From: Escherichia phage vB_EcoM_ESCO32
Reading direction: 5' to 3' (one strand)
Length of the DNA: 64,000 nucleotides
Sequence record: OM386658.1
The stretch's first letter is position 1, and each line of letters begins with the position of its first letter. The notes under the pieces were generated by a model that was given only the letters and a program-made list of their open reading frames with translations, made no database searches and was not told the DNA's origin. Below, in pieces: positions 16,713-17,303 of this stretch. A program made the translations under genes and the position numbers.

Positions 16713-17303
16713 ATGAAAAACATTAAATCTTTTATTGTTGCAGTTGTTTTAGGTAGTGCATTGCTGGTAGGTTGTGATGATTCTGAAAATGTACAAAATC
16801 AACGTTACCAACAAACACCAAATCAGATGGTAGATGAACAATATGTAAATCAGCCTGCACCTCAAGTTGTTCAAGCAGCACCTGCACAACCTTCAACAGT
16901 TGTTGTGCAAGGAGGCGGCAGTGGTTCTTCTGGCGTAGGTGAGTTTGCTACAGGTATGCTTCTTGGTCATATGTTGAGTGGTAATAGTGGCGGTGGTGGT
17001 TATAGAGATGGCGGTAGCAATACAACAATTATCAATAACAACGCTGCTCCTACAACTAATAGTAAAGCATATACAACACAAAAGCATAGGTTTTATGATA
17101 AACAAGGGAATACATATACAACCACTAAACAAAACACAATTAAGCAGCAAAGTGTACAAACGTATTCACGCCCATCAACAACAAAAGTGAATAGTGATTA
17201 CTCTGCTCGTAAGTCTTACTCAAGTCCTATTAGCTCTTATAGTAAGTCTTCGAAAAGTTATTCTTCGTCGAAACGTAGTTTTAGTAGCTCACGTCGTCGT
17301 TAA
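16713..17303 (+). CDS. lipoprotein with Gly-rich and Ser/Tyr/Lys-rich low-complexity tail
   Basis: MKNIKSFIVAVVLGSALLVGC (lipobox LVGC) after gagggtt RBS; then Q/N/P-rich, GGGSGSSG and SYSSSKRSFSSSRRR low-complexity sequence. Confidence 0.45.
   Translation: MKNIKSFIVAVVLGSALLVGCDDSENVQNQRYQQTPNQMVDEQYVNQPAPQVVQAAPAQPSTVVVQGGGSGSSGVGEFATGMLLGHMLSGNSGGGGYRDGGSNTTIINNNAAPTTNSKAYTTQKHRFYDKQGNTYTTTKQNTIKQQSVQTYSRPSTTKVNSDYSARKSYSSPISSYSKSSKSYSSSKRSFSSSRRR

Follow-up and report, generated by a model that had tools for sequence, protein, structure and literature searches.

The gene at positions 16713-17303 (+) of a stretch of Escherichia phage vB_EcoM_ESCO32 (OM386658.1) raises the question of what a lipoprotein of extremely low sequence complexity might be doing inside a Ter-like gene cluster. 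All coordinates refer to the 64,000 nucleotides (64 kb) of this genome that were analyzed, which we call the window. The source phage is a phi92-like coliphage (Justusliebigvirus, Stephanstirmvirinae), and the open reading frame (ORF), of 196 codons plus stop, is the ortholog of phi92 gp180 (Phi92_gp180), the name used here. In GenBank the phi92 protein is a 'hypothetical protein' carrying a sig_peptide feature, which is a SignalP 3.0 call. An earlier note on this DNA had drawn attention to its lipobox, to a Q/N/P-rich segment and a Gly-Ser run, and to a C-terminus made almost entirely of S, Y, K and R. The translation is as described there, running from MKNIKSFIVAVVLGSALLVGC through the Q/N/P-rich part and GGGSGSSG to KSYSSPISSYSKSSKSYSSSKRSFSSSRRR.

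Our analysis indicates that gp180 is almost certainly a lipoprotein precursor, its lipidation and localization being inferred from established sequence rules, and we hold with good confidence that it is a lipoprotein with a disordered mature chain. The overall reading that we prefer, in which gp180 is an early, inner-membrane-tethered accessory of the Ter module that conditions the envelope or excludes other phages, is put forward tentatively, and its functional part taken by itself is more doubtful still. The bare observation is already known, since gp180 is in GenBank as a hypothetical protein and UniProt calls its Phapecoctavirus orthologs 'Lipoprotein'. What appears to be undescribed in the available libraries and papers is a signature at the level of the family, which combines charge polarity, a GxxxGH helix, a basic C-terminus, the Asp-Asp of the coliphage members and a slot between terC and telA that is shared with gp181.

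The lipoprotein signal of gp180

We favor a start at 16713 over the in-frame ATG at 16698 because the ribosome-binding site (RBS) GAGAGGG (16700..16706, +) lies 6 nt upstream of it and because phi92 is annotated with the same start and with an RBS at the equivalent place. The first 20 residues (16713..16772, +) form a signal peptide that corresponds to the SignalP feature of phi92, with K2 and K5 in the n-region and an h-region extending from F7 to V19; AlphaFold models residues 2-19 as a helix with a predicted local distance difference test (pLDDT) score of 83-87. The signal peptide leads into the lipobox L18-V19-G20-C21, followed by D22-D23 (16764..16781, +). In an alignment of close homologs (A1) C21 is invariant and D22 and D23 are nearly so. 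The protein therefore has what is expected of a signal peptidase II substrate, namely a charged n-region, an h-region and the motif [LVI][ASTVI][GAS]C some 15-35 residues from the start. The classical lipobox noticed earlier is thus borne out, and it recurs in 121 of 133 relatives. Two scripted six-frame scans of the window identified gp180 as the sole ORF that combines an RBS, n- and h-regions and a lipobox.

The ORF is real and not a chance frame, since tblastn finds gp180 at >=95% identity in 54 phage records (phi92 among them), 29 further homologs have the same layout, and a profile search retrieves 108 clusters of relatives. A DNA-repeat origin for the low-complexity tail was considered and rejected, as Tandem Repeats Finder detects no tandem repeat in the DNA under the Ser/Tyr/Lys tail. 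The Ser residues of the tail use mixed codons. The low complexity is therefore kept at the level of the protein.

The residues that follow the lipid-bearing Cys bear on where the protein would reside. In E. coli an Asp at position +2 after this Cys causes retention in the inner membrane by Lol avoidance, and D, E, Q or N at +3 strengthens the effect. All 30 sequences of A1 have C-D-(D/E/S) after the lipobox, and gp180 itself, with C21-D22-D23, carries the Lol-avoidance sequence at both positions. This predicts that gp180 is retained at the periplasmic face of the E. coli inner membrane. The family member of Yersinia phage P778 has C-D-N at the same place. Of the 133 members scored, 50 have Asp, 28 have Gly and 21 have Ser at +2.

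The mature chain and its family signature

The mature part of gp180, of ~175 residues, begins with an acidic Q/N/P/V-rich linker (aa 22-73; 16776..16931, +; net charge -4, isoelectric point (pI) 4.05) that ends in VVVQ and GGGSGSS. The linker is predicted to be disordered (pLDDT about 47-56), and its motif QYVNQ..PQVVQ..VxVQ is conserved in A1. It leads to a helix (aa 74-92, GVGEFATGMLLGHMLSGNS; 16932..16988, +) that is the only predicted structured element of the mature part (AlphaFold block pLDDT 68-80). Beyond the helix lies a basic, disordered tail rich in S, T, Y, N, K and R (aa 93-193; 16989..17291, +; pI 10.4), which is terminated by Arg-Arg-Arg and the stop codon (17292..17303, +). The RRR is nearly invariant in A1. 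The sequence of the tail is conserved among the roughly 40-60%-identical homologs of that alignment, and TTIINNN (aa 104-110, nt 17022-17042) is likewise conserved. Residues 91-196 carry a net charge of +15. AlphaFold2, run with a 65-sequence alignment, gives helices at 2-19 and 74-92 only, with a mean pLDDT of 57 and a predicted template modeling score (pTM) of 0.20. We read the low confidence outside the two helices as probable intrinsic disorder, in agreement with the disordered and strongly basic tail that had been described from the sequence.

The helix carries a stripe of small residues, G74, G81, G85 and S89 (GxxxGxxxS), which fall within +/-60 degrees on a helical wheel, and a conserved His86; G81 and G85 are invariant in A1. 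Its mean Eisenberg hydrophobicity (<H> 0.39-0.55) is moderate and its hydrophobic moment (muH 0.02-0.11) is very low. We considered a transmembrane (TM) reading of aa 74-92 and rejected it. The best 19-residue window has a dG of +9.1 kcal/mol on the Hessa scale, whereas the same script gives negative values for the true TM segments of neighboring proteins (gp181 -1.2, TerC -0.9 and gp184 -4.6 kcal/mol). The corresponding windows in the mature parts of the family have a median of +8.9 kcal/mol, and none falls below +3. A helix as polar as this would not be expected to stop transfer at SecYEG, and so the whole mature chain, including the basic tail, is most simply placed in the periplasm.

These features extend well beyond the close relatives of the source phage. 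A word-indexed search gave 29 more distant homologs of 120-203 aa, most of them 180-200, with the same layout and many of them on 140-155-kb contigs. The features under constraint in A1 are Cys-Asp-Asp, QYVNQ-x-APQVVQ...VIVQ, GGHDSGVGDFATGMILGHMMSGG, GGY...TTIINNN and a tail ending almost invariably in SSSRRR. When a profile of the core alignment (A2) was searched against 1.84 billion representatives, it retrieved 108 clusters at E<1e-3, 10 of them at E<1e-10, mostly of 110-250 aa. The signature of the family includes a GxxxGH(M/L)xS helix placed between an acidic Q/P/V-rich linker and a basic S/T/Y tail. The helix consensus is G-V-G-D-F-A-T-G-M-I-L-G-H-M-M-S-G, in which the two central Gly residues are essentially invariant across the family; 59 of 71 aligned members have the His. 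The net charge of the linker, counted from the Cys to the helix, has a median of -2 (range -9 to +1) and that of the tail after the helix a median of +11 (range +1 to +19), with the linker at or below 0 and the tail at +3 or above in 118 of 121 members. The C-terminus is similarly marked. At least two of the last four residues are K or R in 121 of the 133 members (three in 83), and an aromatic residue stands within the last nine in 90 of 121, against ~53% expected from the composition of the tail. In some distant relatives the last residues are GGFK(K/R).

gp180 is covered by no family of Pfam, NCBIfam or PADLOC (PADLOC, 0 families). Its NCBIfam matches are limited to the signal-peptide end (aa 3-35), and weak matches to YjbE and DUF2076 were set aside as compositional. 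gp180 is assigned to PHROG 21570, with a further match of its core to PHROG 32479, and the two are families of unknown function. The A1 profile finds nothing below E 0.02 among PDB sequences, and the match at that value covers profile positions 5-52, essentially the signal-peptide end once more.

Some partial likenesses are nevertheless instructive. OsmB and SlyB/Pcp are glycine-zipper envelope lipoproteins, and the GxxxG(xxxG/S) stripe of small residues in a moderately hydrophobic segment of gp180 recalls these families (Gly-zipper_Omp/YMGG). However, gp180 has a single short zipper (G81-x3-G85-x3-S89), no folded domain and a predicted inner-membrane sorting signal, and its charge-polarized disordered flanks and basic C-terminus are foreign to the glycine-zipper families. 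It matches no glycine-zipper hidden Markov model (PF13488 and relatives), and the relative P0082 reaches Gly-zipper_Omp at a sub-threshold E of 0.005. A second likeness involves SARAF (PF06682). Six of 65 relatives (A3), though not gp180 itself, match the C-terminal part of the SARAF model, with a best E of 7.9e-6 and all of them below the gathering threshold of 30.8 bits. The matches lie in the Gly-rich helix region, with aa 32-118 of P0061 aligned to positions 214-291 of 333 and aa 29-115 of P0082 to positions 187-279. We take this part of SARAF to be a cytosolic tail that follows a TM segment, includes a Gly-rich GILGY helix and a stretch rich in S, Y and P, and ends in RRR. SARAF differs in its luminal domain and TM segment, which are not in the phage family, and in belonging to another kingdom and another compartment; convergence of low-complexity sequence is the simplest reading of the likeness.

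Genomic setting of gp180 and its relatives

The Ter-like cluster around gp180 is nearly complete, with every gene on the + strand, and gp180 stands in it between TerC and TelA. The Ter-like character of the region, as noted previously, is confirmed by Pfam thresholds being passed by a HAD hydrolase (12713-13387), PRTase_3 (13380-14237), Macro (about 14200-14946), TerC (15503-16480), TelA (18259-19362), a vWA-TerF-like protein (20609-21403) and TerD (21476-22072). gp180 itself has no Pfam match to any Ter component (TerB, TerC, TerD/E/Z, TerF vWA, TelA or PRTase/HAD). Also within the cluster are gp184 (14956-15162), a small membrane ORF that supplied the -4.6 kcal/mol control above, gp183 (15177-15425), the gp181 ortholog (16520..16726) and gp179 (17339-18190), with a SleB-like hydrolase that has its own signal peptide at 22821-23330.

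Five related phage lineages keep the slot between terC and telA, among them the source phage, phi92 and the Phapecoctavirus phAPEC8. At the loci L008 and L016 the gp180 homolog again stands between terC and telA, with extra genes inserted, whilst the 2.9-kb contig L006 includes only the terC side of the homolog. In L004 the homolog lies within a few kb of vWA-TerF, TerD, Band_7 and hydrolase genes, and in the distant L021 the order is TerC, Band_7, lipoprotein, a 206-aa protein, TelA, vWA-TerF, TerD and hydrolase. All of the family contexts inspected look phage-like. In the Ter-bearing phages, identity to the source phage is 65-81% for the proteins of the Ter core and 35-52% for gp179, gp180 and gp181; the trio therefore evolves faster than the Ter core. 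Such fast evolution would fit disordered or conflict-facing proteins.

gp181 is a 68-aa member of PHROG 17591 (E 1.8e-44), with a single TM helix near the N-terminus and two Cys residues in the C-terminal part. Its reading frame overlaps the start of gp180 by 14 nt, and gp181 homologs stand directly upstream of the gp180 homolog in phi92, L006, L008, L016 and phAPEC8; in the phAPEC8 record a single annotated coding sequence covers the gp181-like frame and the lipoprotein frame. We also observed that the gp181 coding stretch GGATTCTGTTTGAAAATATTTGTTTTGC is unusually conserved as DNA across phages whose proteins are <50% identical. In the conserved WILFEN stretch of gp181, the differences among five phages look mostly synonymous, as judged by eye and without a count. 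gp181 additionally has a weak match to DUF6693 (E 2.4e-4).

The DNA around gp181 also carries candidate signals for expression. Just past the terC stop, a GC-rich hairpin, AGCCCC-TTCG-GGGGCT followed by TTATT (16488..16508, +), could be a weak terminator, although it falls below the T-run rule of our terminator scan. A hairpin is found at the same place in phi92 and also, with a different sequence, in L006. Inside the gp181 ORF and 87 nt upstream of the gp180 start is a sigma-70-like promoter, TTGACA-17 nt-TACAAT (16598..16626, +), which at 11 of 12 positions is the best promoter-like match in 13000-20000. Its -35 TTGAC is invariant, and a -10 of the form TA...T recurs at the same spacing, in five phages whose gp180 proteins are 35-52% identical. 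In the record of phAPEC8, the same cluster has a promoter of the host type marked upstream of terC. Early expression of gp180 by the host RNA polymerase, which the earlier note had implied, is plausible because of this conserved upstream site and the host-type promoter of phAPEC8, and we would put it no higher.

The gene for gp179 (283 aa) always comes after the lipoprotein gene in phi92-like phages. It has no Pfam, NCBIfam or meaningful PADLOC match, and is 35-41% identical across phages where TelA is 71-79% identical. In L006 its first ~70 residues make up a small ORF of their own, and L008 has a shorter form, of 183 aa, located ahead of a SprT-like gene.

Other neighborhoods of the family lack this cluster. 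On two unrelated metagenomic phage-like contigs (L022 6608-7705 and L025 580-1574) the family members P0037 and P0055 directly follow a gene with a receiver-like cREC_REC domain (PF20274), and this is a second recurring neighborhood that is distinct from the Ter one. In L023 and in Yersinia phage vB_YenM_P778 (L024, 63159-63533) the member lies shortly downstream of nrdD, without Ter genes. In the source phage, too, only ~5 kb separates nrdD/nrdG from the Ter cluster downstream. The lipoprotein gene may come from an older conserved early-gene block into which the Ter genes were inserted later. The NrdD-like ORF of the window (8846-10675, +) is one continuous frame of 609 codons, and its phi92 ortholog (L001 885-2963) is recorded as two pieces and a joined 'spliced variant' over 2079 nt, which suggests an intervening sequence in phi92 nrdD that is missing from the source phage.

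Annotations of some other genes in the window also deserve comment. The SleB-like hydrolase ('endolysin', Hydrolase_2) has an N-terminal signal-like sequence, MSIKTFVAIALLSLTAFTFTPVVAQAEA, and no holin gene adjoins it; the report on Justusliebigvirus BME3 describes proteins near the BME3 endolysins as being without TM domains (PMC12210895). gp184 (68 aa) is called 'Holin' in the BME3 gene table (PMC12210895), and its gene, within the Ter-like cluster, lies a long way from those of the spanins and terminase. The same table gives the name 'Lipoprotein' to the product of a 113-aa ORF beside the tailspike gene (43303-43644, -; phi92 YP_009012481.1). This ORF has no Cys and thus no lipobox, apparently consisting of a short hydrophobic segment and then a coiled-coil-like stretch, and the label is probably an annotation error.

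A proposed role and its competitors

We propose that gp180 acts as follows. The prolipoprotein would be exported by Sec, acquire its lipid on Cys21 and be processed by signal peptidase II, and Asp22-Asp23 would hold the product in the E. coli inner membrane, on the periplasmic side. The mature chain would then be a disordered, charge-polarized tether, with an acidic Q/P/V spacer, the GxxxGxxxS helix, a polycationic tail and an end made up of an aromatic residue and RRR. The stripe of the helix may pack with itself or with a membrane protein, for which gene linkage makes gp181 and TerC candidates, whilst the cationic tail could stick to anionic envelope surfaces, either phospholipid head groups or peptidoglycan. 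Synthesized early from a host-type promoter together with gp181, gp180 would serve as an accessory envelope component of the Ter-like module (TerC, TelA, TerD and vWA-TerF), and this module would condition or stabilize the envelope of the infected cell, most plausibly against superinfecting phages. RP4 TrbK, a lipoprotein, and T4 Imm and Sp are inner-membrane proteins of entry or superinfection exclusion, and offer a functional analogy, being small, encoded by mobile elements, produced by the resident element and exposed at the periplasmic side of the cytoplasmic membrane. We found no sequence similarity between them and gp180; one family relative has a weak TrbK_RP4 match (E 0.0063) that reflects at most a shared lipoprotein signal. 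Iyer et al. have suggested that phages use their Ter systems to compete with superinfecting phages, TerC acting by altering the membrane and TelA and TerF by forming sub-membrane structures (PMC7824862).

Several observations weigh against this proposal. No homology in Pfam, NCBIfam, PADLOC or PHROGs ties gp180 to any function. Ter genes are absent from the fetched flanks of the members in L010, L012, L022, L023 and Yersinia phage P778, and none of the source phage's Ter genes is present at L017 (by tblastn), L025 or L007 (a short contig); the Ter linkage of the family is lineage-specific. Likewise, gp181 was not found beside the distant family members. The sorting signal is not uniform either, the Phapecoctavirus ortholog having C-E-D and many distant relatives Ser or Gly at +2, and so the membrane that anchors the protein may differ by lineage and its function may not depend on it. 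Promoter-like sites are not enriched in the region (26, compared with 21.4 +/- 4.7 in shuffles). Finally, the charge pattern of the family resembles that of the positive-inside rule and would also fit a different topology.

In that topology the helix would be a stop-transfer anchor or an oligomeric membrane helix, with the linker as a periplasmic loop and the basic tail in the cytoplasm, where its possible contacts include TelA, the TerD/vWA proteins, nucleic acid and the inner leaflet. The positive-inside rule is indeed obeyed family-wide, as the linker and tail charges given above attest. In addition, the helix is uniformly rather than amphipathically hydrophobic and has a GxxxG stripe, a motif common in TM helix dimers, and the weak SARAF matches of the relatives fall at model positions 187-291 of 333, which we presume to be cytosolic. 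The energetics are difficult to reconcile with such an arrangement, however. The hydrophobic core of the helix is only ~11 residues long, its best window contains a conserved acidic residue and a His, and the strongly positive values of the whole family stand against -0.9 to -4.6 kcal/mol for true TM segments next door, so that we regard a bitopic gp180 as quite unlikely. A matter of ancestry rather than topology is the resemblance to DUF1190 (YgiB/YjfM, PF06693), of which gp180 might be a diverged, truncated relative with the same task in envelope stress, the phage supplying its own copy. Common to the two families are a lipobox, a Gly/Met-rich helix and a low-complexity tail rich in S and T. 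The DUF1190 helix WMPLMMGYMMG (WMPLMAGYMMG in E. coli YgiB) and FATGMILGHMMSG of gp180 have the core G-x-x-x-G-(Y/H)-M-M in common, and both are families of envelope proteins of unknown mechanism that occur in phage early regions. True DUF1190 genes are present in 145 phage records, large phages often having one, and the DUF1190 protein of phage Moon has been noted as role-unknown (PMC4319498). DUF1190 has been called a metal-chelating lipoprotein in phage-shock-protein (PSP)-type operons in one comparative study, and expression of YgiB needs the Cpx envelope stress response, its loss impairing growth in unbuffered medium and peroxide (bioRxiv 10.1101/2022.08.05.503015). When the mature parts are compared by hhalign only the 13-14-residue helix is aligned, at 59-72% probability, and a broad family profile reaches 80% with a score of 37; full-length alignments gave an alignment of the lipobox only, an artifact that we discarded. 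One of the 65 relatives matches PF06693 at E<0.01, and P0091 attains 21.9 bits against a cut-off of 22 (profile positions 61-148). Yet reversed controls score 28, leaving the 37 barely above composition, and gp180 has no match to PF06693 even at E<=10. Moreover, an alignment of 32 DUF1190 proteins (A4) has invariant C57, C81 and C89 and a nearly invariant C47 in addition to the lipobox C31, with a core ...APKY...C..EFG..C, whereas the only Cys of gp180 is that of the lipobox. The near-invariant RGGFG of DUF1190 is also missing from gp180, which ends in RRR in place of SFGG, and the helix Met residues are freely replaced by Ala, Leu or Ile. Beyond the helix the likeness is indistinguishable from composition; a short motif and a layout are shared and membership of the family is not found, and we consider common descent improbable.

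The remaining possibilities concern function. Llp of T5 and Cor are outer-membrane lipoproteins, and the receptor masking that the earlier note had suggested would make gp180 a superinfection-exclusion protein of this kind. A phage lipoprotein in a probably early region would suit such a role, as would the lack of Asp at +2 in the Phapecoctavirus ortholog, and phi92 uses surface glycans and other receptors that are maskable in principle. The suggestion is not supported by the residues that follow the lipid Cys, since Asp at +2 and +3 in gp180, and at +2 in the 30 close homologs, signals retention in the inner membrane. The protein is also disordered, without a folded receptor-binding domain or a named Pfam, NCBIfam or PHROGs family, and the family occurs in phages of evidently different hosts, unlike receptor-specific blockers, all of which makes masking very unlikely. 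The adjoining terC gene invites the thought that gp180 is a periplasmic partner of TerC that handles metal, with the His and Met of its helix binding Cu(I), Mn or Zn brought by the TerC exporter or destined for it. The helix does conserve His86 and several of its Met residues, DUF1190 bears its metal-chelating label, and TerC proteins are described as metalating exported proteins (PMC10550928). Each protein has a single His, however, and no Cys or His clusters; the substitution of the Met residues by Ala, Leu or Ile argues against Met as a metal ligand; and many family members have no TerC nearby. We consider a metal-handling role highly improbable. Least convincing of all is a part in lysis, whether as an o-spanin with gp181 as its i-spanin, as a unimolecular spanin (u-spanin) or as a cationic disruptor of the outer membrane. 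As in the spanins (Rz/Rz1, T1 gp11), a gene for a small membrane protein is followed by an overlapping lipoprotein gene, and the chain could potentially cross the periplasm; the SleB-like hydrolase is 5.5 kb downstream and the tail is cationic. What otherwise distinguishes spanins (a different sorting signal, a coiled-coil partner, a C-terminal TM segment and a lysis cassette) is lacking at gp180. An o-spanin would not carry Asp at +2, the periplasmic part of gp181 is only ~40 residues long, a u-spanin would need the C-terminal TM segment that gp180 lacks, the promoter is host-type and not shared with a lysis cassette, and distant members have no partner gene. We reject the spanin reading from the lipobox scans of the window and because the genus has a separate spanin pair beside terL, outside the window: in the BME3 gene table a 138-aa i-spanin and a 94-aa o-spanin adjoin the large terminase and the gp180 ortholog is listed as hypothetical (PMC12210895). 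A lytic function for gp180 is thus barely credible.

The envelope-conditioning accessory of the Ter module accordingly stays our preferred reading, at the tentative level stated at the outset. A bolder extension, which we rate as improbable, is that the whole family constitutes an undescribed class of lipid-anchored, disordered and charge-polarized phage envelope effector with a fixed signature, physically remodeling the periplasm early in infection and blocking, for example, the trans-envelope channel of a second phage. The chain would bridge or coat the space from the inner membrane to the peptidoglycan or outer membrane, in an orientation set by the +2 residue. Alternatively it might form a surface-bound condensate.

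Large lytic phages have many early genes for small envelope proteins of unknown role. The family described here comprises more than 100 clusters at 50% identity and has no Pfam, NCBIfam or PADLOC model, and its signature is unusually rigid for a disordered protein. Coliphages resembling phi92 and phAPEC8, which find use in collections built with therapy in mind, carry gp180 inside a Ter-like cluster whose role against superinfecting phages is a proposal. A phenotype for gp180, together with gp181, would offer a first experimental handle on the action of phage Ter modules at the membrane, and would also reveal how a disordered lipoprotein works in the periplasm. Should gp180 prove dispensable, it would be one more fast-evolving accessory gene. 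The interest would be greater if the disordered tether were a general phage device for remodeling the periplasm and, were the family such a class of effector, the recurrence of the helix-plus-basic-tail arrangement in DUF1190 and the SARAF model would suggest that this motif is widespread close to membranes.

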